From IMG/VR virus record IMGVR_UViG_3300024999_000035, positions 64,001 to 128,000 of that record: a DNA stretch of 64,000 nt; one strand, 5' to 3'. Origin of the DNA: a virus. Lineage: Duplodnaviria; Heunggongvirae; Uroviricota; Caudoviricetes. The notes under the pieces are model-generated. The model did not search any database. It was not told the origin of the DNA and was given only the letters and a program-made list of their open reading frames with translations. This document shows, piece after piece, positions 2,061 to 42,691 of the stretch (the stretch's first letter is position 1; each line of letters begins with the position of its first letter). The position numbers and the translations under genes were made by a program.

Positions 2061-2462
2061 TTACAAATGCTGTTTAACTAGTGTTTTTACAACCGCAAGA
2101 CTATCTATGCAAACTTCTTTACTCTTATCATTCATTACTACATTGTTAATTTTTGTTCCATCCCTTCGTAATAATAGTATCATATTATTGAGTAAAACAC
2201 CAATGTCTTCTGAATTCAGATCAATAACTTCAGGAATTTCTTCTTTTATAATATCATCATTTCTTAAAAAATCATCAATTGTCATACCTAAATACGAACA
2301 AAGATTTATAAGATACGACATATCACTTATTTGTTTGATTTCTTCTTTGTCTTTAATTTCATTTAACCACGCAGGAGGAACGTTTGCTGCCCTAGCAAAA
2401 TCTGCAAAATATTTATGATTTAACCTTTCTTTAAATAAGAAAACTTTTTCTCCAACATTCAT
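2061..2462 (-). CDS. XRE-family HTH transcriptional regulator
   Basis: FADFARAANVPPAWLNEI...LINLCSYLGMTIDDFL HTH pattern. Confidence 0.75.
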   Translation of the reverse strand: MNVGEKVFLFKERLNHKYFADFARAANVPPAWLNEIKDKEEIKQISDMSYLINLCSYLGMTIDDFLRNDDIIKEEIPEVIDLNSEDIGVLLNNMILLLRRDGTKINNVVMNDKSKEVCIDSLAVVKTLVKQHL

Positions 2463-2480
2463 AAAATATCAATTCCCTTC

Positions 2481-2882
2481 TTATTGCCATTTTCCGTCAA
2501 TATATCGACTACCTTCCATTTGTCTAGATAATTTACTAAATACTACTGTTTTGGTTTTTGTGGTAAAAATTAAAACATCTAAGTCAGTCCACGCAGTAGC
2601 ATCTTTTTCAATAGGATTAAGAACCCATTCCTCACTGTTAGACATTATATCAGGTAAATAATTAATTCCTCTGTTAATCTTCTTTAGCAAGCGAAAATAA
2701 GTTTTCTTTAATAGAGATTCCAAAACATTTTCGCTCTCTACATAAATCAATTCCATCAAAACTTCCATTTTCATTTCAATGGAATACAAATCCTTAGACG
2801 CATAACCCAATTTATTCATTTCGTTCTTAAAAGAGAGAAGCAAATTATATCTTTTCCACATTTCTAACAATGTATTTTGCAT
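2481..2882 (-). CDS. Hypothetical protein in repressor operon
   Basis: 133-aa ORF tightly packed between SroF-like and XRE genes. Confidence 0.7.
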   Translation of the reverse strand: MQNTLLEMWKRYNLLLSFKNEMNKLGYASKDLYSIEMKMEVLMELIYVESENVLESLLKKTYFRLLKKINRGINYLPDIMSNSEEWVLNPIEKDATAWTDLDVLIFTTKTKTVVFSKLSRQMEGSRYIDGKWQ

Positions 2883-2887
2883 AATAG

Positions 2888-3934
2888 TTACCTCTCGTCA
2901 TTCAAATAAGAATTGATCAATTCTCGTGTTTTGAAGAGATATTTCTCTCCATCTGTTCCAAACTCGAATCTCTCATTGATTGAAATGTAATCGTCTCTGG
3001 TTAATTTATCTTTTTCGCCTTTTTCTTCCTTCAATTTTTTAGCATATTCAATAATAGCAGAAAAATATAGGTTGCTAATGCTAATATATGGTTTTCCTAA
3101 CCATTTTTGAATTCGTTGTATTCTACTAGCAAAGAATTGATAATCTACTTTCCCATCTTTGTTCTTTCCTGGAGTTCTAAAAACATATTCAGTTTTATTG
3201 ATTATTCTTCCCCTATCCGTACTTTCATATACTCCATCATCATTAGGTTTTGTCTTTAATCCATTGTTAGCAACATAGAAATCTTGATCAATAACCTTTT
3301 TTAGTAAATCTAACGTGTAATCATCTACATCCATCCATCTAAATTCACCATTGTTTTTAGTAAGATATAATCTCTTTTCTTTCCAACCGATATCTTTAAC
3401 TTTTAGATTAACTAGTTCCTCAAGAGTATTTCCTTTTTCAGTACGACCCCTGACCCCTAGATTTGGCAATTCAATAATTGCTCTGTCCTGATAATTTACT
3501 AATTTAGATTGAAACTCTCTACATTCTGATAGAGGAATATAGGAATTTTCTTTTGCTTGAATATTGATATACGATTTATAGTTACTAGTAATAATGGCAC
3601 TGAATCTATTCTCATTGTGTCTCACTAAATTCTTAGGGGATATACAAAAGTCAACATAAGTTTTTAATGGAGATAAAACAGTTTGAAATGCGAACTTGTT
3701 TTTGTTTTTATACTGAACAATTAACAATTCATCTCTTTCTTCTGTATTAAAGTTATAAATTGGTTTTCCTAATTTAACTTCGAAATCATCAGCTAATTGC
3801 AAAATATAACGATAATAACTTCTAGTTGATTTTAGTTGCTTTTCTAAAAATTCTTCCTTAACTTCTGGATCTACTTCGAATACTAATTTTTCTTCAGTTT
3901 GTGATTCGTTATTAATAATTTCAATTTTAGTCAT
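2888..3934 (-). CDS. Integrase-fold lysogeny repressor, SPbeta MrpR/YopR (SroF)-like
   Basis: Tyr-recombinase-like core (DRAIIELPNLGVRG...ELVNLKVKDI) but H-x-x-R replaced by SNLYFS; similar in size to YopR; directly downstream of a YopQ-like gene as in SPbeta. Confidence 0.75.
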   Translation of the reverse strand: MTKIEIINNESQTEEKLVFEVDPEVKEEFLEKQLKSTRSYYRYILQLADDFEVKLGKPIYNFNTEERDELLIVQYKNKNKFAFQTVLSPLKTYVDFCISPKNLVRHNENRFSAIITSNYKSYINIQAKENSYIPLSECREFQSKLVNYQDRAIIELPNLGVRGRTEKGNTLEELVNLKVKDIGWKEKRLYLTKNNGEFRWMDVDDYTLDLLKKVIDQDFYVANNGLKTKPNDDGVYESTDRGRIINKTEYVFRTPGKNKDGKVDYQFFASRIQRIQKWLGKPYISISNLYFSAIIEYAKKLKEEKGEKDKLTRDDYISINERFEFGTDGEKYLFKTRELINSYLNDER

Positions 3935-3949
3935 TTTAAAGCATCTCCT

Positions 3950-5335
3950 TTAAATTAATTTTTGAAAGAACTTATATAGATTTGTGCGCGTTGATTTTTT
4001 CATATCTGATTCTTTACTTAATTTAATATCATCCCAGAATGAATTTTCCATACTGAAATCTATTTTATCTAAAATCTCCTCAAGTATATCATCCCACTTT
4101 TTAACACCATATAAACGTTCAGATAATGCAATATATCCTGCAAACATATTTTTATGGTTGATATAACTTACCTTCTGAGTTGCTTCAGGATGCTCCATAA
4201 ACGCCTCAACATTCAACCCAATGATATAATCCATAACATTAGCAATATGGTTTGCAATGGGTTTTGTTTGAAGTTTGTTGGTTAATTTATCTCCGTAACA
4301 CTCTTCAATAGCTATAGCCAATGTTGACTTCTTTGCCATACCAAAATGTTCAAGTTCAAAATGTCCAATTTCTTTATCATTGTCCTTTATTTGATCTGCA
4401 AATTCAGAAGTATCAATATCTTTAATTGCATCTACGACTACATTGCCAAGACTAGCAGTATCCATATTCTTAATATGCTCTTGCTTCATTTTTTGTTGCT
4501 TATTGATTTCAACCATATATTTTTGTGCCCTAATTTCACTGTAATTTATTACAACTAATAGCCAATTAAATTGTATGTCAGGGTTAATTGCGTAGGCCAA
4601 GGAGTTTCCGACCTTCCGGTGCATACCGTCCACAAGGTTTTTAGTTCCTGATATAATAGACAGATCACCAGATTTTTCATCATAATATATTTCATCTGTA
4701 CCATCTTTAAGAACATTTACTACTATAGTAGTTGGGAATTGATCTCCCGAAAGAACACCATCTCTAATTTCTTTTGCATTGGTTTTGTTTAAATGTATTC
4801 GTTTCATTCCATATACATCAATAAGTGGGTCACGTTGTGTCTTAAAATTATAGATAAATTCATTCCCTGCATCTAATTCAGCGAATTGTTTTCCAGACAT
4901 ATATCCAGAATAAAATCCAGGAGCAATTCTGTTCATTTTAGGGAAAACAATAACTTCGTCTTTTTTGTCTACTTTCTTTTCAAATTTATAATCATTTAAG
5001 TTCTCAATCTCAATTTCATTAAAATAATTTTTGGGATCAATTCTTAATATCTCTTCAATTTCCCCCAATGATTCTTTATCTTCTGACTCTTTATGTGTCA
5101 ATGCATTATAAATACTCATAGTAAAGATAAATAATATTATTACATCTTTACTTTCATCGATATCCAAGGTAGATAATTCTCTGTTTTCATTTAGAATACC
5201 GATTGCTAAACTACCCTTCATATTTCTCTTATCAAATTCTTCTACAATTATTTTCCTAACCTTGTCATTACTTGAATACTTCTTGATTAACACATTTAAT
5301 TCTTGAATTAACTCTACTGATTTTTCTTTTAACAT
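3950..5335 (-). CDS. DGQHR/DndB-like ParB-fold protein, SPbeta YopQ (SroE)-like
   Basis: FPTTIVVN...LVDGMHR...INKQ motif; about 460 aa; ATG at 5335 follows GAAGGAG RBS (the track start at 5344 overlaps the RBS). Confidence 0.75.
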   Translation of the reverse strand: MLKEKSVELIQELNVLIKKYSSNDKVRKIIVEEFDKRNMKGSLAIGILNENRELSTLDIDESKDVIILFIFTMSIYNALTHKESEDKESLGEIEEILRIDPKNYFNEIEIENLNDYKFEKKVDKKDEVIVFPKMNRIAPGFYSGYMSGKQFAELDAGNEFIYNFKTQRDPLIDVYGMKRIHLNKTNAKEIRDGVLSGDQFPTTIVVNVLKDGTDEIYYDEKSGDLSIISGTKNLVDGMHRKVGNSLAYAINPDIQFNWLLVVINYSEIRAQKYMVEINKQQKMKQEHIKNMDTASLGNVVVDAIKDIDTSEFADQIKDNDKEIGHFELEHFGMAKKSTLAIAIEECYGDKLTNKLQTKPIANHIANVMDYIIGLNVEAFMEHPEATQKVSYINHKNMFAGYIALSERLYGVKKWDDILEEILDKIDFSMENSFWDDIKLSKESDMKKSTRTNLYKFFQKLI

Positions 5336-5388
5336 AAATATCACTCCTTCACATTATCGTCACAATATCTTAACATTTATATAATATA

Positions 5389-5418
5389 ATAATACCATGA
5401 CCTCCCTAATAATGTCAA
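5389..5418 (-). promoter_or_regulatory. sigmaA promoter of the sroE/sroF-like operon
   Basis: TTGACA-18-TATTAT with extended TG. Confidence 0.75.
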
Positions 5419-5440
5419 GGAATAATACTTATTTTTATAA

Positions 5441-5477
5441 ACAAACTGCTCAGTGGCGGGGATTCAGAGCAGTTTGT
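5441..5477. terminator. Hairpin/probable terminator upstream of the repressor promoter
   Basis: Perfect 11-bp IR ACAAACTGCTC / GAGCAGTTTGT; weak U-tail. Confidence 0.55.
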
Positions 5478-5498
5478 CATGCTTCAAATGTTAAATTA

Positions 5499-5897
5499 TT
5501 AGATTACACCAGAAGAAACAAAATTTTGTGAGCATGGACACATTCTAGTTTTTACCGTTCCACAATGATTTAATAATAATTCTTTCTCATATACAACCAA
5601 ATTATCACCTTGGAATACTATATGTTCATCAATAATTTTTTCTAAATTAAGACATTCTATATGAAAAGTAAAATTAAATTCTGCATCAACTTTCTTTTTA
5701 TTTAAGAAAACTAAAGCTTTCTCAGCATGTTCTTTGGTCGTGTATCCCCTTGCTTCTTGGGAGAATGTCTTAAATGCTATGTATTGCCATTTTTTATTAC
5801 TCGATTTGCCTATGCTTGATCTATTAGAAAAATTACCATTTTGATCCTTAATAACCCAAATTGATTGTTCATTTTCTTCTTTTTTACAATTTTCCAT
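5499..5897 (-). CDS. Hypothetical protein
   Basis: 132-aa ORF with AAGGAG RBS. Confidence 0.7.
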   Translation of the reverse strand: MENCKKEENEQSIWVIKDQNGNFSNRSSIGKSSNKKWQYIAFKTFSQEARGYTTKEHAEKALVFLNKKKVDAEFNFTFHIECLNLEKIIDEHIVFQGDNLVVYEKELLLNHCGTVKTRMCPCSQNFVSSGVI

Positions 5898-5977
5898 ATA
5901 TTCACTTCTCCTTTAATTTTATTTTATGGAAATTACTACAAATTGTATTTTGATTCTCTTAATACCTCCTTGTTAAT

Positions 5978-6006
5978 ATTATATCATGGGAGAAATTACT
6001 GTTCAA
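5978..6006 (-). promoter_or_regulatory. sigmaA promoter
   Basis: TTGAAC-17-TATAAT with extended TG. Confidence 0.65.
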
Positions 6007-6103
6007 CAACTATCATAACAAAAATAGTACATATGTTCGACATTTTATTCTAAATTGTTCGTCTGTCTTGATTAATTGTCTAAGATACCACATTACCATT
6101 ATA

Positions 6104-6916
6104 TTAATAACCATTAATTCCATTTGAATTAATCATATTCTCATATACTTGCAATTTAATCTGTTCTTTGCACAATAGATTGTTAACAAACATCAGCAAT
6201 AAAGTTATGAAAATTATTGGAATACAAATTATCCCAATGATAATATACAATTTTTCTACAAATTGTATGTAAATTAAAATATTGTTTCTTTCTATTAATT
6301 TTACAACATAAGAAACTAAAGAAATTCTAACCAATACTATTAAAAGTAAACTATATATAAAGAATTTGTTTTTAACTATGGAATTGAATAAATCAATATG
6401 AACTGTACTATTCCTTCTAATTATGACAAATGAAATGACACATAAATATAATACTCTCGCAGGAAGACCTAATAGAAAATTATAGCATACATTAGCATTA
6501 AAGAATGATATTGGTCTATCTAACAATGAGGCAATTAAGGGACAATATGAGTATTCTACTATTCCTACAATAACAAAACCTGAGATAGTGAATATTGCTG
6601 TTTTAATGATTAATAAGATATTAATGTCGTAACTGTTGTTTATAACTATAAATTCCATGAGTAAAATCATAATAATCATAGTTGAAATCATCATATTTTG
6701 CTGGGGTACAATTATTATGTATTTTAGGATATTTATCATTATGGATACAGGAAGTACAGCTAATGTAATCCATTTTAGGCTTTTATTCCACATGTAAATG
6801 TCTAGGAGATTATTTAGTTTTAGGAATATTAGAGTTATTATTGCTATGAATGCTTCTTCTGGAATTGATGTGAATATTATGTTTAGGAGGATGTGGGGTA
6901 GGGATAGTGTTTGCAT
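6104..6916 (-). CDS. Polytopic membrane protein resembling an AgrC sensor domain without kinase (copy 2)
   Basis: About 7 hydrophobic segments over the whole 270 aa; IPE motif shared with 8148-8963; no H-box or HATPase; agr context. Confidence 0.6.
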   Translation of the reverse strand: MQTLSLPHILLNIIFTSIPEEAFIAIITLIFLKLNNLLDIYMWNKSLKWITLAVLPVSIMINILKYIIIVPQQNMMISTMIIMILLMEFIVINNSYDINILLIIKTAIFTISGFVIVGIVEYSYCPLIASLLDRPISFFNANVCYNFLLGLPARVLYLCVISFVIIRRNSTVHIDLFNSIVKNKFFIYSLLLIVLVRISLVSYVVKLIERNNILIYIQFVEKLYIIIGIICIPIIFITLLLMFVNNLLCKEQIKLQVYENMINSNGINGY

Positions 6917-6956
6917 ATTATTTTCTCTTCTTTCTTTCTAATATTATTTGTTGTAT

Positions 6957-7022
6957 ATAGATGGTCATTATAATAAGAATGATAAAGATTAGTTAATAAT
7001 ATATGATATAATGACCATCTAT
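6957..7022. promoter_or_regulatory. 16-bp perfect inverted repeat overlapping a TATAAT box upstream of sensor copy 2
   Basis: ATAGATGGTCATTATA (6957-6972) / TATAATGACCATCTAT (7007-7022), 34-nt spacer. Confidence 0.7.
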
Positions 7023-7043
7023 TTTATTTTCATAATAATTATA

Positions 7044-7835
7044 TTACTTTCCAGTTTGTAGTATTAATCCACGATTACTACTTTGAAGGTGACGGATACG
7101 ACTTTCCTCTTCTTTATTTACATATTCATTGAGTTTATCTAAAAATCTGCTTACAGTAGATTCTTTAGCTTTAGTGTGTACCATACCAGCCTGTTTCATA
7201 ATGCCAATCGACACTTGCCTCATTATCTCGTCATTTGCCTCTCCTAAGAATCTTATGTGGCCATCTATAAGCAAATCTCTTTTTGTAATCACTCTCATTT
7301 GCTCTATGAGAAGTTCTGATTCTCTTTCTAATCCACTCTCTCTACCTATTCTTATATGCATGGGCATAGCCTTACCGAGTTTAGAAGATATTGGAATTGC
7401 CCAAGTTATTGTAGCCATGTTATTTCCTATGTTGTTCTGGGCAATACAGGCGGGTCTTATACCCCCTTGGATAGAATCTACAAAGTTACCAAAGTTTACC
7501 ATATATAGACCGCCCCAAAATGGTTTTATGTCTTTTAAATTGATATCTCCATCATTTATATCATAACCACAGGCGATCCTTAATTGATCAAAAGATACTC
7601 TTAATTCTGATCCATTAGCAATTTTTTGAAGAAGCCAAAGTTCTGGATATGTAGTTATTTTTGCATTAAAGATATTAACAATGTCTTTAATAGAATTGGG
7701 GATACCATTTTTTCCTGCAAATTCTGAAATGGTGTTATTACCAACAGCTATTTTTACTAAATTTGCGAGTTTCTTAAAATCCTTTACCTCATTTGATTTG
7801 ACTACCTCGATATTCTTTTTTGTATTGAAAAACAT
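7044..7835 (-). CDS. XRE-like HTH fused to a PemK/MazF endoribonuclease domain
   Basis: N-terminal TISEFAGKNG...PELWLLQKIA HTH; C-terminal GGLYMVNF...QGGIRPACIAQNN...AIPISS...EQMRVITK PemK motifs. Confidence 0.8.
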   Translation of the reverse strand: MFFNTKKNIEVVKSNEVKDFKKLANLVKIAVGNNTISEFAGKNGIPNSIKDIVNIFNAKITTYPELWLLQKIANGSELRVSFDQLRIACGYDINDGDINLKDIKPFWGGLYMVNFGNFVDSIQGGIRPACIAQNNIGNNMATITWAIPISSKLGKAMPMHIRIGRESGLERESELLIEQMRVITKRDLLIDGHIRFLGEANDEIMRQVSIGIMKQAGMVHTKAKESTVSRFLDKLNEYVNKEEESRIRHLQSSNRGLILQTGK

Positions 7836-7900
7836 ATTAATTCATCCACCTTTCTTAATTGAGTAAATATAAATTTTTTAAATGTTTACTTTATATTACT

Positions 7901-7929
7901 ATAATACATTACGGTGGTGAATATGTCAA
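7901..7929 (-). promoter_or_regulatory. sigmaA promoter of the HTH-MazF gene
   Basis: TTGACA-17-TATTAT. Confidence 0.75.
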
Positions 7930-7954
7930 TAGTAATTTAAAATTATTTTACAAT

Positions 7955-7985
7955 TCAAAAGGAGAGAGTATAAAACTCCCTCCTT
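7955..7985 (-). terminator. Intrinsic terminator after agrD
   Basis: AAGGAGGGAGT-tttat-ACTCTCTCCTT, 11-bp stem with one G.U pair, followed by U residues. Confidence 0.7.
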
Positions 7986-8002
7986 GGATTATGGGGTATG
8001 TA

Positions 8003-8122
8003 CTACGCGATACATTTAGGGGTTTTTGGTTGATGCCACACTGCAAAACAAGGCATTGTAGCTGCATGCACAGCAATAGAAGCAATAATTACCAAACCAC
8101 TTGCTAACATTTTATTTTTCAT
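8003..8122 (-). CDS. agrD: AgrD cyclic autoinducer propeptide MKNKMLASGLVIIASIAVHAATMPCFAVWHQPKTPKCIA (missed by the ORF track)
   Basis: Hand translation, 39 aa; GGGAGGTGA RBS at 8128-8136; hydrophobic leader, C-x4 ring CFAVW, HQPKTPK tail typical of clostridial AgrD; agrB nearby. Confidence 0.92.
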   Translation of the reverse strand: MKNKMLASGLVIIASIAVHAATMPCFAVWHQPKTPKCIA

Positions 8123-8147
8123 ATTTTTCACCTCCCTTGCTTTATAA

Positions 8148-8963
8148 TTATTTGTTAAACAGACAATCATCTTCGCTAGAAGGTAGATTATAAGCCTGTT
8201 TTACACTATTTAAAAGAGAAACGCAATGATTTATTATTAAATACAATCCAGTTATTACAATAGAAGGTATTAAATAAGTTGTACATATTATAAATACTAT
8301 CTGTCCAATTAATGTATTCATAATATTTAAAAGATTATTAAAAAGAATTAATTTTAGTATACATATTTCAAATATTAATAATGATATCATAGTAATTACA
8401 ACAAATCTTTTGAAGAAAATATTTACGCATATATATTCTAATATATTAATTTGAATTTTTATTTGTTTATATGTAATTATAAATATAATAATTACAAATT
8501 CTATAATTTTTGATGGGACTGAACAAATTAAAACTAAATAAATATTTTTAGATATTTCTTGATAATTTAAATTAAAAATGTAAAACCAAACTGGAGCAGT
8601 TAATAAATCAATTGCCATTAAACTTAAATACAATGGAATAAACCTTATTAATAATTTTACTTTTAGATAATTAACTTCTTCAATTTTTGTCTTTTCAAAT
8701 ACGTAAATTGATAAAAAAAATAACAATATTAAATTAATCAAAGATGCAACATTTTGTTGAATCGCAAATCCATAAAGAAGTATACTAATTATTAAAGAAG
8801 GTGGGATAATTAAAATTAAATACCATTTTATATTCTCTTTAAATCTATAAATGTCCAAGAATTCGTTTTTTTTCATAAATTTAATTAATAATATTACCAT
8901 AAATATCACTTCAGGAATCGCTATAAGAAAAAAGTTTATAAATATTTTTACTAAATTATCCAT
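8148..8963 (-). CDS. Polytopic membrane protein resembling an AgrC sensor domain without kinase (copy 1)
   Basis: 271 aa, hydrophobic throughout; co-transcribed with agrD; no kinase domain. Confidence 0.6.
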   Translation of the reverse strand: MDNLVKIFINFFLIAIPEVIFMVILLIKFMKKNEFLDIYRFKENIKWYLILIIPPSLIISILLYGFAIQQNVASLINLILLFFLSIYVFEKTKIEEVNYLKVKLLIRFIPLYLSLMAIDLLTAPVWFYIFNLNYQEISKNIYLVLICSVPSKIIEFVIIIFIITYKQIKIQINILEYICVNIFFKRFVVITMISLLIFEICILKLILFNNLLNIMNTLIGQIVFIICTTYLIPSIVITGLYLIINHCVSLLNSVKQAYNLPSSEDDCLFNK

Positions 8964-8995
8964 ATGTATTTCCTCCTTAATATTCTAATATATTA

Positions 8996-9024
8996 AGTAT
9001 AATACATATACAATGAGTTGTCAA
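8996..9024 (-). promoter_or_regulatory. sigmaA promoter of the sensor-1/agrD unit
   Basis: TTGACA-17-TATACT. Confidence 0.8.
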
Positions 9025-9052
9025 GTATTATTTTATTTTTATATTCGGTGAA

Positions 9053-9673
9053 TTACGTTGTTTTATTACTTTGTTTAATTGAATAATATAAAACCATTCC
9101 GGCAAATAACTTTATCAATATATCACCTGGACTCATTATTACATAAAAAATATCCCAAGTATCGGTTAAAAATATTAATTTTGTCGTGTAGTTACCCAAT
9201 ATATGAAAATCATTAAATACTGACGCTTTTTCAAACATATCAATCTTTGAAAACCCAATACTAATGCTGTTGCTTGGAAATACAGGCATTTTACCATTAT
9301 TATAAAACATAGCTAATTGATTTAATTTAGATCCTACTGTCGCACATAATGCCCCTATAATAACTGGTGATGTAAGCGATGTAATTAATTGTCCATTCTT
9401 TTTTATGTTAATATTTTTAAATACAGAAATATTAATTAGTTTATATTTAATAATTAACAATATGTAAAATAGAAATGTAACATCTTTTATACAACTACTA
9501 TATTGTAAAAACCAATATTCTCCGTGAATCATCAAATACACAATATATATGTTCAGTATACAAGTTAATATAATTGAATAAGCACTCCAATGTCTAAATA
9601 TTTTAAATATTTCAGACCATTTATATCCTTTGAATTTTGCAACCAAACAAGCAATAACTACTACTTCGATCAT
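9053..9673 (-). CDS. DUF5317-family membrane protein
   Basis: NNGKMPV...H......TKLIFLTD...SPGDILI motif; ATGA overlap with the agrB stop. Confidence 0.75.
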   Translation of the reverse strand: MIEVVVIACLVAKFKGYKWSEIFKIFRHWSAYSIILTCILNIYIVYLMIHGEYWFLQYSSCIKDVTFLFYILLIIKYKLINISVFKNINIKKNGQLITSLTSPVIIGALCATVGSKLNQLAMFYNNGKMPVFPSNSISIGFSKIDMFEKASVFNDFHILGNYTTKLIFLTDTWDIFYVIMSPGDILIKLFAGMVLYYSIKQSNKTT

Positions 9674-10356
9674 ATATGTCCTCCGTCAATCCATCTGAAA
9701 AATTTTGCTCCAATAGGTGTAATTGTAGATATTTCGAGCAATACTCCAAAAAAGACACTTGTACTAATTATTTGATGTGAATTTAAAAGCACAATACTTA
9801 AAAAACAACAAACTGTAACAAACAATATACTTCTATGCTTTTTTATATTACCATTATCACAATCTTTATCTGATTTATCTTCTCTTTCTTGAGGAGCATA
9901 TTTATAAGCTAAATATATACTAATTATATATCCAATTATTAAATATAAGTAATCTATATGTATTTGAGTTACTATCCATCCTAAAGAAAGAAAACATATT
10001 ATCATTGCCCCAAAACATTTATTAAAGGTAGATAAATGGGAACCGCCAGCAAAAACTCTTAAAACAGTGAAAATAGTCATTACAATAAAAACCGGAAGTG
10101 AAATACCTAAACATAAACATTTCGCTATAAATAAAACAATTAAATATTTAAGTATCTCACTATAAGCAAGAGTAATCCCGTTTTCTACCAATTGAAAGAT
10201 ATGCTCTGCATTAGTTTGTATATCTTTTTTCCTATGTGTTTTTATTACGTTGTTGACTTTTGAATAATGATCTTTATTAAATACCTCATTAATTGTATTT
10301 ATATTGATATTAAATATGCTTAAAGTTTTTTTAGTTAAAAAAGTTATGAAATCCAT
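9670..10356 (-). CDS. agrB: Accessory gene regulator B (AIP-maturing membrane peptidase)
   Basis: LRVFAGGSHLSTFNKC catalytic His/Cys motif; YKYAP; multiple TM segments. Confidence 0.92.
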   Translation of the reverse strand: MDFITFLTKKTLSIFNININTINEVFNKDHYSKVNNVIKTHRKKDIQTNAEHIFQLVENGITLAYSEILKYLIVLFIAKCLCLGISLPVFIVMTIFTVLRVFAGGSHLSTFNKCFGAMIICFLSLGWIVTQIHIDYLYLIIGYIISIYLAYKYAPQEREDKSDKDCDNGNIKKHRSILFVTVCCFLSIVLLNSHQIISTSVFFGVLLEISTITPIGAKFFRWIDGGHI

Positions 10357-10381
10357 ATTATACTAATTATATCTCTCCTTC

Positions 10382-10777
10382 TTAATTTGCATAAGCAACA
10401 TTATTTTTAGTTTCACCAAGATCAAACTGTATTCTCAATGCATCTGAAATCTTGCTCATTATGTAATTATCACAATGACCAATTTTTTCCACAAACATAC
10501 TTTTATTTAAAAGTTGTACTTGCTCGCAAAGTGCTACAGAAACTATCCTTAATCCAGTATCGGTTGAAATTTCCACGTGGGTAGGAATATATCGTTTTGA
10601 TTTTGTTGTCGTCGGCACCGCATGAATCACACTAGAATACTTACAACACATTGGATTCGCCACTACAATCATTGGACGCATAAAACCACCTTGGATAGAC
10701 CCTACTCCTTCACCTAGATTTACCAGAAAAATATCTCCTCTTCTTATCTCTTGTGAAACTTTATTTACTACTTGCAT
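10382..10777 (-). CDS. mazF: PemK/MazF-family endoribonuclease toxin
   Basis: RRGDIFLVNL...QGGFMRPMIVVAN...VPTTT...ALCEQVQLLNK; no MazE-like ORF adjacent. Confidence 0.88.
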   Translation of the reverse strand: MQVVNKVSQEIRRGDIFLVNLGEGVGSIQGGFMRPMIVVANPMCCKYSSVIHAVPTTTKSKRYIPTHVEISTDTGLRIVSVALCEQVQLLNKSMFVEKIGHCDNYIMSKISDALRIQFDLGETKNNVAYAN

Positions 10778-10917: not shown

Positions 10918-13090
10918 CTACTCCATTGGTGGAATCTTCAACCATTCCCACTTCATAATTCTTCTTACAATAGCAGTAAACAATACAATCATCAAAGCAG
11001 AAAGTAAAAACAATAAAGATCCTACACCTAAAGTTAATAATGTCTTTAATAATCCAAACATTTTCATTTCTTCTAATATACTTAATCCTAAAGTCCAAGA
11101 TCCAATCACTAATATTGATAATGCAACAATTAAAAGAATTCCACCAAATATCCATGATATAATTCTGCCCCATAAAGGTATTTTAGTTTCTGGTTTAAAT
11201 TCAATAATATCATCATCCATTATTATCTTCCTCCTCTTCATAAAATACAGGATGAGTAGCAATCATATCAATCAAAGTAACTCCCATCCACCAATACATA
11301 CTGGAATTACTTTTAGGTAATCCAATTATAGACAAAAGTATTATTGCTATCATTTGAATTAAAACAAATTTACTCCAATATCCTTTTATTTTATGCATAT
11401 AATCTCCTCTTTAAAATTAATTAATACTTATTACACTTCCTTTTATTACCATCTATAAACAATTTAACTTCTTAATATGTAAATTGCTCTGTAATAGCAG
11501 GATGCATCCACTTTTCCCAAGTAGTTTTTAAATCACACTCAAATATATTTGATTGCTCAACTAAAATCCCTGAAACTTTGGATAATTCTAATTTAAACAT
11601 TATTTTATCCTTTCTATTAAATTATTACTTTAACATTTACTTCCCTCCCCATGCACAAGCAAAAATATTCCAATCCACATTATAAAAAACCAAGCACTAG
11701 GACTTTGAGGTAAAATATTAATCGTAATATGTTTACGTTCTTTATTATTCTCACACATAATTAAACTCTCCTCCTATTTATATCCTTTTACTCACAACAT
11801 TCTTCACAAACATTTCTATGATAACCGCAATCAGGGCATATTTTAGGTTCTGGACAATAAATATGATAACTAGAAATATTTCCATCTTCTTCAATTCTCA
11901 TTTTACAAGCGTGATCTAATGGAAGTTCTTCTCCGCAAGAATGACATATACTACTGCTCATTTAATTTCCCCCCCTCCTTTTTTATACTTAATTTAAACC
12001 AGTTTATAAACTATCATTACTACCCTAGTGTTTTCAAAATGCCATTTAATTTCTAACACTTCCACTTCATCTTCATTACAATTAAGCCATTTATTAATAT
12101 CCTCTTCTAAATCAGATATTCTATCATTAATATTAACACGACTAAAAATCTTAATTTGAGTCAAACAATCATTTCCTTTCTACCCTTTAAAACTATTCTT
12201 TTATTTTATTTTATTTTACCTAAACTTAAAACACCAATTAGGAATATTACATTCTTTTCTAATATTATAAGGTCTACAAGCACATGTAATTTCTCTATTT
12301 CCTATACTACATATAACTTTTACATCATCGTCACAAAACCAATCATTAGGGTCTGGATCAGGCAATATTTGATGAGAAGAACAGTCAATACAATTCTTAA
12401 TAATATTATTATTCATTTATATAATCTCTCCTTTAGTAATTATTCCCACGCTTCTACCAAACTTTTACACACTTCATCGTAATTACATAATCTCATATTT
12501 AAACCTTTCTCATAACTCAAATACTCAGTAAACAAATAGTATTTACTTGCCATAAATTTACAATCTTCAATTTTATGACCATTCTCACTTTTACGCATTA
12601 AACAAGTATCATAACTTTGACATCCACAACATTTTAATTGACATATTTTACAGTTTGGTGTTTCTTTCATATGTCTTATTCCTTTCTTTTAATTAGTCTT
12701 CTTTAACAACCCAATACCCTTCTCTCAACCATTGTTTCATTCTCTTTTCTTCTATATATGATTGCTCTAATTCTCCATCTTCAATCCAAGTTATTTTATA
12801 CTTACCATCATTTTCTTTTTCTGCTCGGAATACGAAGTCACAATAAGGAAATAACTTTTTATTCTTTTCATCTAGTTCAAAATTAAATATGTCTTTCATG
12901 GGATACTCCTTTCTATTTTGAAGAATCAATTAACTCTATGATACAATTACTGATACCTGTTCTACATTTTTAGATGCAGGTTGAAGTTTCTCTTGATTTG
13001 CTTTTGCAAGAATTTCATTAAGACTACGAGTGTTTTGTGGTGCTCCAATTGCCTGTACGTCTACAATTTCTTGATAAGATGTTTTCATTA
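10918..13090 (-). other. Cluster of small hypothetical phage ORFs (10918-11262, 11213-11398, 12216-12416, 12440-12670, 12693-12929 and shorter ones)
   Basis: Consecutive short minus-strand ORFs with RBSs; no recognisable family. Confidence 0.6.
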
Positions 13091-42013: not shown

Positions 42014-42691
42014 CTATAAATTCAATTCTAAATAGACATCATCCAGTTCATCTTGGGTGATTCCTATATATCGAAGAGTTTCCTTTGGTGATGAGTGATT
42101 TAATAGTGCCTGGATGCGTGTAACATCTACCCCTGCATCATACAGAGCGAAAGCAAAACTTTTTCTAAGTGAATGATTTGATGTTGGTTCTTTGATTCCA
42201 CATGCTTTTGCTGCTCTACTTAAAATGATATGTGCTTGTTGCCGAGTGATGGCCTCATTTCCTTTTCTAGAAGCAAACAAAGCAATCTGATCAGATGGAA
42301 CAATAGCAAGGTATTCTGATAAAGCAGATTTTACATTTGCATTGAATGGGAAGTTTTTACCTTTGCTAGTCTTATTCTCTTTTACTTTAATTCTATCACG
42401 TATCCTACCATTCTCATCAACCACATCTGAAATTTGTAAATCAAGTAGATCACTAATTCTCAATGCTGAATTAATTCCAAGTACAAATAATGTCCAATCT
42501 CTTAATGATTTTGATTTTAGATACTGCTTCATTGCTTCAATGTCTTTTTTTGATTTAATTGGCTCCACAGTACCCATACCATTACTCGTTTTAAGTTCTG
42601 CTCCACATTCAGTACAAATAATAGAATTTTTAATAGCAGGAGTTCCACATTCTTTACATTTTTTTGTAAATGTTTCTGCTTTCTTTGCCAT
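42014..42691 (-). CDS. Tyrosine recombinase (catalytic domain only) with an N-terminal zinc ribbon
   Basis: CKEC...CTEC; LRISDLL, KENKT, HSLRK, LNHS, TLRY catalytic residues intact. Confidence 0.92.
   Translation of the reverse strand: MAKKAETFTKKCKECGTPAIKNSIICTECGAELKTSNGMGTVEPIKSKKDIEAMKQYLKSKSLRDWTLFVLGINSALRISDLLDLQISDVVDENGRIRDRIKVKENKTSKGKNFPFNANVKSALSEYLAIVPSDQIALFASRKGNEAITRQQAHIILSRAAKACGIKEPTSNHSLRKSFAFALYDAGVDVTRIQALLNHSSPKETLRYIGITQDELDDVYLELNL

Follow-up and report, generated by a model that had tools for sequence, protein, structure and literature searches.

A kinase-less agr-type cassette with MazF genes in front of SPbeta-like phage repressor genes, a candidate module for peptide communication

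To our knowledge, no peptide system of phages other than arbitrium has so far been shown to govern the ratio of lysis to lysogeny, and arbitrium is confined to phages of the Bacillus group. In phi3T, MazF promotes lysogeny and reportedly degrades most phage mRNAs, sparing the operon that holds sroF (PMC10769878; 10.1101/2025.11.27.690993). Genes of the agr type have also been found in a phage, since phiCDHM1 of C. difficile carries agrB, agrC, and agrD (PMC3901668). In C. perfringens, agrB and agrD belong to the operon CPE1563-CPE1562-agrB-agrD, in which the two upstream open reading frames (ORFs), of no known function, are co-transcribed with agrBD; toxin production was restored by a plasmid bearing the four genes together (PMC2706048). 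Here we describe a cassette of agr-type and mazF-like genes that lies directly in front of homologs of the SPbeta genes yopQ (sroE) and yopR (sroF/mrpR). It was found in the window, which is the 64,000-nucleotide stretch formed by bases 64001-128000 of a 178,304-bp IMG/VR virus record (IMGVR_UViG_3300024999_000035) rated complete by CheckV. An earlier note on this DNA had proposed that the phage may use a thiolactone autoinducing peptide (AIP) for its lysis-lysogeny decision, with its own MazF proteins as transducers; the note leaned on the part played by MazF in phi3T and on the presence of AgrC in the agr locus of phiCDHM1, both of which published work bears out (PMC10769878; 10.1101/2025.11.27.690993; PMC3901668).

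We give about an even chance to the reading that the cassette is a kinase-less derivative of the clostridial agr operon, serving as a phage-to-phage cyclic-peptide module that feeds the lysis-lysogeny switch through MazF. Its genes keep their place in front of the repressor genes throughout the relatives. When YopQ was used to search IMG/VR, 10 relatives were found, 9 of which have the cassette directly upstream of yopQ-mrpR, and an alignment-based YopQ scan returned the same 10 loci as the single-protein scan. An alignment scan with the cassette's helix-turn-helix (HTH)-MazF fusion gave 21 viral contigs, 12 of them new, and all 21 have the order 7TM-agrD-HTH-MazF-agrB upstream of yopQ-mrpR, where 7TM denotes a protein with seven predicted membrane helices. 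The same layout occurs in two contigs of Clostridiaceae metagenome-assembled genomes (MAGs) and in a further contig lineage (L037/L038). The cassette thus precedes yopQ/mrpR in all of the roughly 25 relatives that carry it, even where YopQ identity is only 24-40% (24-26% in the lowest lineages), and it was not found away from these genes in any phage contig examined. This survey of SroEF homologs speaks against a sporadic insertion, which the earlier note had left open, and shows the agr genes to be conserved beside yopQ/yopR. That note's term for the location, the arbitrium position, is fair, because aimR-aimP of SPbeta likewise lie upstream of yopQ, at a distance of about 2.4 kb and on the same strand.

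All twelve genes that had been listed for the module are present in their stated places and lie on the minus strand. Together with the signals between them, they are, in the direction of transcription:

10382-10777, minus strand: mazF, 131 aa, a stand-alone MazF/PemK endoribonuclease (PF02452, 3.6e-20; phrog_1936)
9670-10356, minus strand: agrB, a membrane peptidase of the AgrD-processing and cyclizing family (PF04647, 8.2e-24, 84 bits against a cut-off of 23)
9053-9673, minus strand: DUF5317 membrane protein (PF17248, 3.4e-12)
8996-9024, minus strand: promoter-like site before 7TM-1, TTGACA-17-TATACT
8148-8963, minus strand: 7TM-1, 271 aa, seven predicted membrane helices and a conserved N-terminal IPE motif, no Pfam family
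8003-8122, minus strand: agrD, a 39-aa precursor (TIGR04223, 28 bits against a cut-off of 19)
about 7957-7986, minus strand: terminator-like G+C-rich hairpin and T run closing the 7TM-agrD unit, by sequence reading
7901-7929, minus strand: promoter-like site before HTH-MazF, TTGACA-17-TATTAT
7044-7835, minus strand: HTH-MazF fusion, 263 aa, with a PemK domain at residues 108-214 (2.8e-14)
6957-7022, no strand assigned: perfect inverted repeat, two 16-bp arms separated by 34 nt, between HTH-MazF and 7TM-2
6104-6916, minus strand: 7TM-2, 270 aa, a paralog of 7TM-1 (26% identity, E 8e-12) without an agrD of its own
5499-5897, minus strand: conserved 132-aa hypothetical protein, last gene of the HTH-MazF unit
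about 5437-5476, minus strand: terminator-like hairpin and T run before the repressor operon, by sequence reading
5389-5418, minus strand: promoter-like site of the yopQ-yopR operon, TTGACA-18-TATTAT with an extended TG
3950-5344, minus strand: YopQ/SroE-like protein, 464 aa, likely start ATG at 5335 (phrog_5732, 5e-55)
2888-3934, minus strand: MrpR/YopR/SroF-like master repressor of integrase-like fold (PF22822, 5.3e-13; phrog_5830 'integrase', 3.6e-45)
2481-2882, minus strand: conserved 133-aa hypothetical protein of the repressor operon (59-74% identity in relatives)
2061-2462, minus strand: possible Cro/C1-type HTH protein (HTH_26, E 0.033, below the cut-off), conserved in relatives

The promoter-like sites at 9024-8996, 7929-7901, and 5418-5389 are near consensus, at 11 of 12 positions, and with the two hairpins they divide the module into three units: mazF-agrB-DUF5317, followed by a promoter, 7TM-1-agrD, and a terminator; a promoter, HTH-MazF, the inverted repeat, 7TM-2, the 132-aa gene, and a terminator; and a promoter followed by yopQ, mrpR, the 133-aa gene, and the HTH gene. 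The arrangement promoter-7TM-agrD-terminator-promoter recurred in 12 of the 12 loci whose intergenic regions were read. A promoter-like sequence in front of 7TM-1 is readable in most related loci, a G+C-rich hairpin follows agrD in related loci as it does here, and a hairpin similar to that at 5437-5476 is found in several. The gene that opens the module, mazF, is conserved upstream in most relatives.

The identity of the repressor genes rests on several matches. The YopQ-like protein aligns with SPBc2 yopQ in tblastn (8e-9, 22.6% identity, 80% of the query covered) and lies directly upstream of the MrpR homolog, as an adjacent gene. The MrpR-like protein reaches only 16 bits with PF22823, under the cut-off of 27. 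No family was found for the 133-aa hypothetical protein. The last gene of the operon, which the earlier note had labeled XRE, is present; its identity as an HTH protein comes from the sub-threshold HTH_26 match (E 0.033).

The peptide gene is diverse in a way that follows its membrane neighbor. An AgrD ORF lies directly behind the 7TM gene in every locus that holds that end of the cassette, and all of these precursors begin with a hydrophobic leader and have a tail of the form (H/Y/N)QPxxP, the window's being HQPKTPKC. The five predicted ring residues between them vary, giving about 20 rings: CFAVW in the window and, in the relatives, CFAAW, CRFWF, SYFIS, SMFFS, SMVVW, SAIIW, SWVIW, SWLGA, SWLFT, SWLWS, SWLFS, SWFWL, SAFLW, SAWTF, SAFWT, SWYLL, SLMWL, SFMWL, SWAFS, and SHLLF. 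The thiolactone of the earlier note is predicted for the window phage and two others, in which the ring position is Cys; in most relatives it is Ser, which predicts a lactone instead. When 20 loci were compared, 7TM-1 was the protein whose identity best followed the number of ring positions in common (rho 0.59; p 0.0005 in 2,000 label permutations); AgrB (rho 0.47) and HTH-MazF (rho 0.33) followed it less closely, and YopQ did not (rho -0.04). The closest counterpart of the window's 7TM-1, at 68% identity, is encoded by the CFAAW phage; the YopQ of that phage is just 26% identical to the window's.

One pair of loci, L007 and L034, narrows the variation further. Their MazF, HTH-MazF, AgrB, 132-aa, YopQ, and MrpR proteins and the products of the next two genes are 97-100% identical; DUF5317 is 92% identical and AgrB 99.5%, but the 7TM proteins are only 67% identical. 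Nucleotide identity falls to 56-75% only over about 900 nt, at roughly 2700-3600 of L007, from about residue 70 of the 7TM protein through agrD, and the two rings are SWLFT and SWLWS. In staphylococcal agr, the hypervariable patch spans AgrD and the AgrC sensor. The match between the two patches argues for direct reading or handling of the ring by the 7TM protein.

A small secreted peptide gene beside a hypervariable polytopic membrane protein is, we infer, also what a common bacteriocin-immunity layout would look like, with the product a bacteriocin-like antimicrobial cyclic peptide and the 7TM proteins conferring immunity. We consider this very improbable: the precursor exceeds the curated AgrD cut-off, its five-residue ring and QPxxP tail are those of clostridial autoinducers, the peptide gene lies with agrB, and no bacteriocin transporter or modification genes are present.

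The cassette varies as a unit. Two layouts occur, agrB-DUF5317-7TM-agrD followed by HTH-MazF with or without 7TM-2 (the window, L004, L009, L062, L064, and L037), and DUF5317-7TM-agrD followed by HTH-MazF-agrB, again with or without 7TM-2 (most other loci), so that agrB stands either before DUF5317, as here, or after HTH-MazF. Pairwise identities of AgrB, 7TM-1, and HTH-MazF are inter-correlated (rho 0.71-0.81), and YopQ, MrpR, the next hypothetical protein, and the HTH protein form a block of their own (rho 0.75-0.94), with which the 132-aa gene co-varies. Between the two sets, AgrB and 7TM-1 correlate with the four repressor-block proteins at a rho of only 0.05-0.29, HTH-MazF being intermediate (rho 0.41-0.51), and the free mazF tracks the phage backbone rather than the cassette. 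In L002 and L005, YopQ is 91-94% identical to that of the window phage, while the cassette proteins are only 24-36% identical. The cassette is exchanged between backbones as one unit.

Large ORFs within the cassettes of relatives were considered as further parts of the system and rejected, as they are homing-endonuclease-like and vary in position. Such ORFs lie inside or beside the relatives' cassettes and none is in the window; those with DUF4379 treble-clef zinc finger or NUMOD features are at L002:3081-4892, L003:3138-4736, L004:3457-5061, L009:7984-9777, and L009:1381-2040.

What kind of protein is the 7TM protein? The earlier note had called both of them sensors; an identity as AgrC sensor domains did not hold up. 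Neither 7TM-1 nor 7TM-2 has a Pfam, NCBIfam, or PHROG family. In the AlphaFold model of 7TM-1 (pLDDT 74), seven long helices are followed by a further one at the C terminus, and the charge distribution is compatible with an N terminus outside and a C terminus inside the cell. Fold searches with this model against the PDB, AFDB clusters, Swiss-Prot models, and the ESM Atlas returned no AgrC and nothing convincing; in the first three, searched with Foldseek, the named proteins that scored best, all at E >= 0.01, included MreD, the S component of an ECF system, and the N terminus of a generic 7TM kinase. A search of 1.84 billion proteins with the 7TM profile gave 228 clusters, and all 150 relatives listed are at most 326 aa long, too short to contain a kinase domain. 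Nor was an AgrC-type kinase found elsewhere in the phage: at E <= 1, the 178-kb genome has no match to an HPK10-type AgrC kinase (HATPase_c_5, PF14501), to an AgrA LytTR regulator (PF04397), or, in a sequence search with SPBc2 YopK as the query, to AimR. The absence of AimR and AgrA, which had been remarked for the window, is therefore true of the whole 178,304-bp record. With AgrC-type kinase, LytTR regulator, and AimR all missing, neither the classical agr mechanism nor that of arbitrium is open to the cassette.

The relatives of the 7TM proteins lie in bacterial agr operons. DUF5317 is the first gene of chromosomal clostridial agr operons, and in Clostridiaceae chromosomes the gene between it and agrB encodes a protein of about 155 aa with the same N-terminal (G/A)IPE motif; agrD and the gene of a GGDEF/HD-GYP protein come after agrB. 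When the phage 7TM family was compared with these small proteins by hhalign, helices 1-5 aligned with a probability of 96.9% and an E value of 1.3e-10; by this comparison the 7TM proteins are extended, distant relatives of the clostridial membrane protein. CPE1563 and CPE1562 of C. perfringens are probably relatives of DUF5317 and the IPE-motif protein. Among the genomes searched, DUF5317 was present in 56 of 149 and a full-length 7TM protein in 3 of 393; weak matches to the 7TM profile in Clostridiaceae proteins of 228 aa were set aside, since these look like unrelated permease-type proteins. As judged from sequence, the phage cassette is an elaborated host-type agr operon in which the small protein has been extended, agrD has moved behind it, and HTH-MazF and MazF have been added.

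Several bacterial loci deserve mention in their own right. L050 (G146:C9:7500-18000) and L051 (G082:C8:75000-85500) have DUF5317, the IPE protein of about 155 aa, agrB, and agrD, with rings CIWYF and CYWMM. In both, a 564-aa membrane GGDEF/HD-GYP protein comes next, a hint that agr peptides may be connected with c-di-GMP in these bacteria. Two bacterial contigs (L035:7269-9543 and L013:199-2069) carry trios of agrB, a 7TM gene encoding 324-326 aa, and agrD, with neither kinase nor MazF, so kinase-less agr trios exist outside phages too; the L035 trio adjoins uvrB and a divergent small HTH_3 gene.

These kinships raise another explanation, namely that the phage has captured from a host an operon for agr peptide biosynthesis and carries it as a moron, whose AIP activates or jams the agr sensing of the host through a kinase encoded elsewhere in that host. 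DUF5317 and the 7TM proteins would then serve peptide maturation and export, and the MazF proteins would be unrelated, acting in host shutoff or anti-defense and lying nearby by chance. The shared order of DUF5317, IPE-motif protein, agrB, and agrD in Clostridiaceae chromosomes, the hhalign relationship (96.9%), and the bacterial agrB-7TM-agrD loci that lack MazF all fit this explanation, as do the co-transcription of the C. perfringens upstream ORFs with agrBD and the four-gene content of the restoring plasmid (PMC2706048), and phiCDHM1 is a precedent for phage-carried agr genes (PMC3901668). We nevertheless hold it to be unlikely, although not negligible. A moron that jams or activates host sensing should track the host's peptide, but closely related phages have about 20 rings between them, and ring and 7TM protein differ between phages that are otherwise 97-100% identical. 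HTH-MazF is present in every cassette and co-varies with AgrB and the 7TM protein as a unit. A fixed site before the repressor operon across such deep divergence is untypical of morons, and an orphan 7TM gene without agrD has no obvious biosynthetic use.

This orphan, 7TM-2, falls into a clade of its own that is better conserved and is represented in 8 of 20 loci; its members are 44-92% identical to each other and 25-43% identical to the first 7TM protein of the same phage. Because the 7TM protein tracks the ring most closely, and diverges where AgrB stays 99.5% identical, we lean toward 7TM-1 being the receptor for the peptide; a 7TM-2 without agrD is also easier to reconcile with a receptor than with a role in export or maturation. 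A complex prediction of 7TM-1 with HTH-MazF scored 0.25, the mark being 0.32.

The output of the module would be an RNase. The profile of the HTH-MazF family matches the MazF/EndoA proteins of B. anthracis and B. subtilis in the PDB at 5e-31, with the motif SEQGGvRP ... lTSr, and the MazF domain of the fusion superposes on a MazF chain of 7bxy with a TM-score of 0.88 and a root-mean-square deviation of 1.7 A. Throughout the family, the catalytic Arg (R127) is invariant and the second catalytic position is Thr or Ser; we take these to be the equivalents of R25 and T48 of the B. subtilis enzyme, in the numbering of 4MDX. The RNase thus looks catalytically intact. On either side of it, the fusion has an N-terminal part of some 90 residues with five helices and a helix of about 37 residues after the MazF domain. 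A Pfam search of the N-terminal domain gave no match. Speculatively, one or the other flanking part might act as a built-in antitoxin. In a protein atlas search with this N-terminal domain and with the 132-aa protein, all scores were below 0.9, and a family search with the 132-aa protein found none.

No antitoxin gene adjoins mazF, and no AbrB-type MazE (PF04014) was matched in the whole phage genome, other antitoxin folds not having been searched. The usual antitoxin position directly upstream of mazF holds a predicted 114-aa membrane protein (10918-11262), about 50% identical in L002 and L003.

Two apparently intact MazF toxins with no recognizable antitoxin could mean that the cassette is a peptide-gated toxin module for inter-phage competition or prophage retention, the MazF proteins acting in superinfection exclusion, abortive infection, or addiction. 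The strain-specific peptide and its 7TM protein would mark self, and only cells or phages with the same peptide type would be spared. The extreme diversity of peptide types fits such kin discrimination, and the swapping of the cassette between backbones as a unit resembles that of defense islands. However, the cassette was never found apart from yopQ/mrpR in the phage contigs examined, and we judge this explanation to be distinctly unlikely; it and a role in communication are not mutually exclusive.

A further piece of evidence concerns the mRNAs that MazF would cut. The motif UACAU is cleaved by the MazF proteins of Bacillus, Staphylococcus, and C. difficile, and we counted it here because phi3T MazF reportedly degrades most phage mRNAs but not the sroF operon. 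In 20 loci, the sense-strand density of UACAU is 0.50 per kb in the yopQ-mrpR block against 2.22 per kb in the flanking 10 kb on either side, and it is lower in the block in all 20; of 30 words of the same composition, UACAU is the most depleted there. For 18 loci, expected counts were obtained from synonymous-codon shuffles that preserve protein sequence and codon usage. The yopQ-like genes have 13 occurrences where 28.4 are expected (z -3.5) and the mrpR-like genes 7 where 23.8 are expected (z -4.1), giving 20 against 51.8 for the two together (z -5.66). Among 757 five-letter words in the repressor genes, only AAAAA is more depleted than UACAU, and the reverse complement of UACAU is at expectation (74 against 72.6). 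No depletion is seen in mazF, agrB, both 7TM genes, the hypothetical gene after mrpR, or the HTH gene, and UACAU is mildly enriched in DUF5317, HTH-MazF, and the 132-aa gene. The depletion is strand specific and gene specific, and it persists across lineages whose synonymous sites must by now be saturated.

Being confined to the two repressor mRNAs, this depletion lends indirect support to a MazF output. It ties MazF to the lysogeny switch and matches the spared repressor operon of phi3T, a tie that counts against a captured operon with MazF genes nearby by chance. It also counts against the peptide-gated toxin module, since it is specific to the repressors rather than phage-wide and points to a lysogeny-promoting MazF, as in phi3T. 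A single SPbeta genome, used as a control, has expected counts of about 2, too few for power.

How might a kinase-less cassette signal? If the cassette is a communication module, AgrB, possibly aided by DUF5317, would release a five-residue thiolactone or lactone that builds up as infections proceed, and the cognate 7TM protein would recognize the ring at the membrane. Since the 7TM protein has no kinase, it would have to relay the signal by protein contact, most likely by holding or releasing HTH-MazF or by altering its activity. Active MazF would then cleave host and phage mRNAs that contain UACAU, the yopQ- and mrpR-like mRNAs, purged of this motif, would survive, and the cell would tip toward lysogeny, as host MazF brings about for phi3T. 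The orphan 7TM-2 could let the phage hear a different peptide, from its host or from another phage. The whole of this picture, a second and independently evolved form of phage communication with strain-specific pentapeptides made by AgrB, a kinase-less 7TM receptor, a DNA-binding MazF fusion that leads to lysogeny, and eavesdropping by an orphan receptor, is one that we put forward tentatively, at somewhat short of an even chance.

Where does the phage live? Its G+C content is about 28%, nearly all genes are on the minus strand, and its DNA is also present in groundwater, soil, and sediment metagenomes. A search of 185,579 species genomes gave a sole match, a 13.9-kb contig of a Clostridium sp. 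MAG, and a more distant relative makes up an entire 149-kb contig (G341:C25) of another Clostridiaceae genome bin. From this binning and the clostridial character of the genes, the host is probably a Clostridium of soil or groundwater. In the whole 178-kb phage a single ORF exceeds the cut-off for the Phage_integrase family, a tyrosine recombinase of about 225-244 aa at 42014-42691 of the window.

A number of points weigh against a peptide-controlled lysogeny switch that acts through MazF. As to lifestyle, that the phage is temperate is inferred from the repressor homologs alone: the 178-kb phage yielded no large serine recombinase like SprA of SPbeta, and the 149-kb MAG contig, when examined for the junction of a prophage, proved to consist of phage DNA throughout, with no integration seen. 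L011 (2278-4351), a natural variant without the cassette, keeps mazF, DUF5317, a small hypothetical gene, yopQ, and mrpR and has no 7TM, agrD, HTH-MazF, or agrB, so the cassette is dispensable for that phage. As far as these tools tell, with a model of pLDDT 74 that leaves some room for a very distant kinship, the 7TM protein is neither a homolog of AgrC nor a truncated AgrC. It could instead serve in maturation or export and co-evolve with AgrD in that role, as AgrB in part does, because its nearest relatives sit in chromosomal agr biosynthesis operons (PMC2706048). The HTH assignment of the N terminus of the fusion is weak, phage Cro being its best profile match at E 0.085. Finally, the cleavage motif of the phage MazF proteins was taken from the enzymes of Bacillus, Staphylococcus, and C. 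difficile, the pooled loci are mutually related, so that the pooled statistics overstate independence, and in the window phage alone, where counts per gene are very small, the repressor block is merely in the lowest 15% or so of 3.2-kb windows for UACAU.

Two smaller features of the region remain to be described. The arms of the inverted repeat between HTH-MazF and 7TM-2 read ATAGATGGTCATTATA, 34 nt, TATAATGACCATCTAT. The repeat is conserved in L009, and in L004 a matching change, ATAGATGG to ATAAATGG, has occurred in both arms. It could be an RNA hairpin or attenuator before the orphan 7TM gene, or a palindromic operator; a search for further copies gave one with three mismatches at 11441, no more than chance would give. 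Just upstream of the module, at 11788-12670, are small ORFs of 57, 66, and 76 aa that are rich in CxxC pairs.

If the cassette does serve the same purpose as arbitrium, SPbeta-like genomes have acquired peptide communication two or more times at one and the same site, from components that are not related; a two-component system is not required for reading agr-type cyclic peptides; and the MazF step of phi3T is an old, transferable feature of the switch, carried here by the phage. The cassette also hints at a possible function for DUF5317 and the IPE-motif membrane protein of clostridial agr operons, and the roughly 20 natural pairs of peptide and 7TM protein are a ready-made specificity series. 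Full-text literature searches returned only reviews that mention phiCDHM1, no paper on DUF5317, and none describing the cassette. By megablast, the DNA of the region matched no GenBank phage or PLSDB plasmid.

Among described systems, phiCDHM1 is likewise a phage with agrB and agrD (PMC3901668), but it has agrC and lacks both a MazF fusion and an SPbeta-type repressor neighborhood; tblastn with the window's AgrB and 7TM protein found no similarity in 50,697 GenBank phage records. With the canonical agrBDCA of Staphylococcus aureus and others, the cassette shares AgrB and AgrD, many specificity groups, and a hypervariable patch over the peptide and its membrane partner. It differs in having neither AgrC kinase nor AgrA/LytTR regulator, in a membrane partner unrelated to AgrC by sequence and fold search, and in an output that is probably an RNase fusion instead of phosphorylation.

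The clostridial agr operons are closer in content, since DUF5317, an IPE-motif membrane protein, agrB, and agrD are found together and the AgrD tails have the YQPxxP form (PMC2706048). Yet the phage protein is about 115 residues longer and has seven helices plus a cytoplasmic tail, as against some five helices in its chromosomal counterpart; agrD directly follows the 7TM gene in a transcription unit of its own; and HTH-MazF and MazF have been added, while the chromosomal versions continue with a GGDEF/HD-GYP protein.

In position and in the nature of its neighbors, the cassette is most readily set beside arbitrium of SPbeta and phi3T. In both, secreted-peptide genes lie a few kb upstream of yopQ (sroE) and yopR (sroF/mrpR) on the same strand, the peptides are highly diverse among related phages, and a MazF RNase is tied to the decision. 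The parts are different. Arbitrium has the TPR receptor AimR and a linear hexapeptide, AimP, that is imported by Opp, whereas the cassette has a candidate 7TM membrane receptor, and its sole peptide gene is of the AgrD type, with a cyclic (thio)lactone made via AgrB. Arbitrium works through the MazEF of its Bacillus hosts; in these phages of Clostridia, in which no AimX was identified, MazF is encoded by the phage, with one copy fused to an HTH domain. The cassette is a new variant among peptide-based phage decision systems, assembled from agr and MazF parts with no two-component relay.

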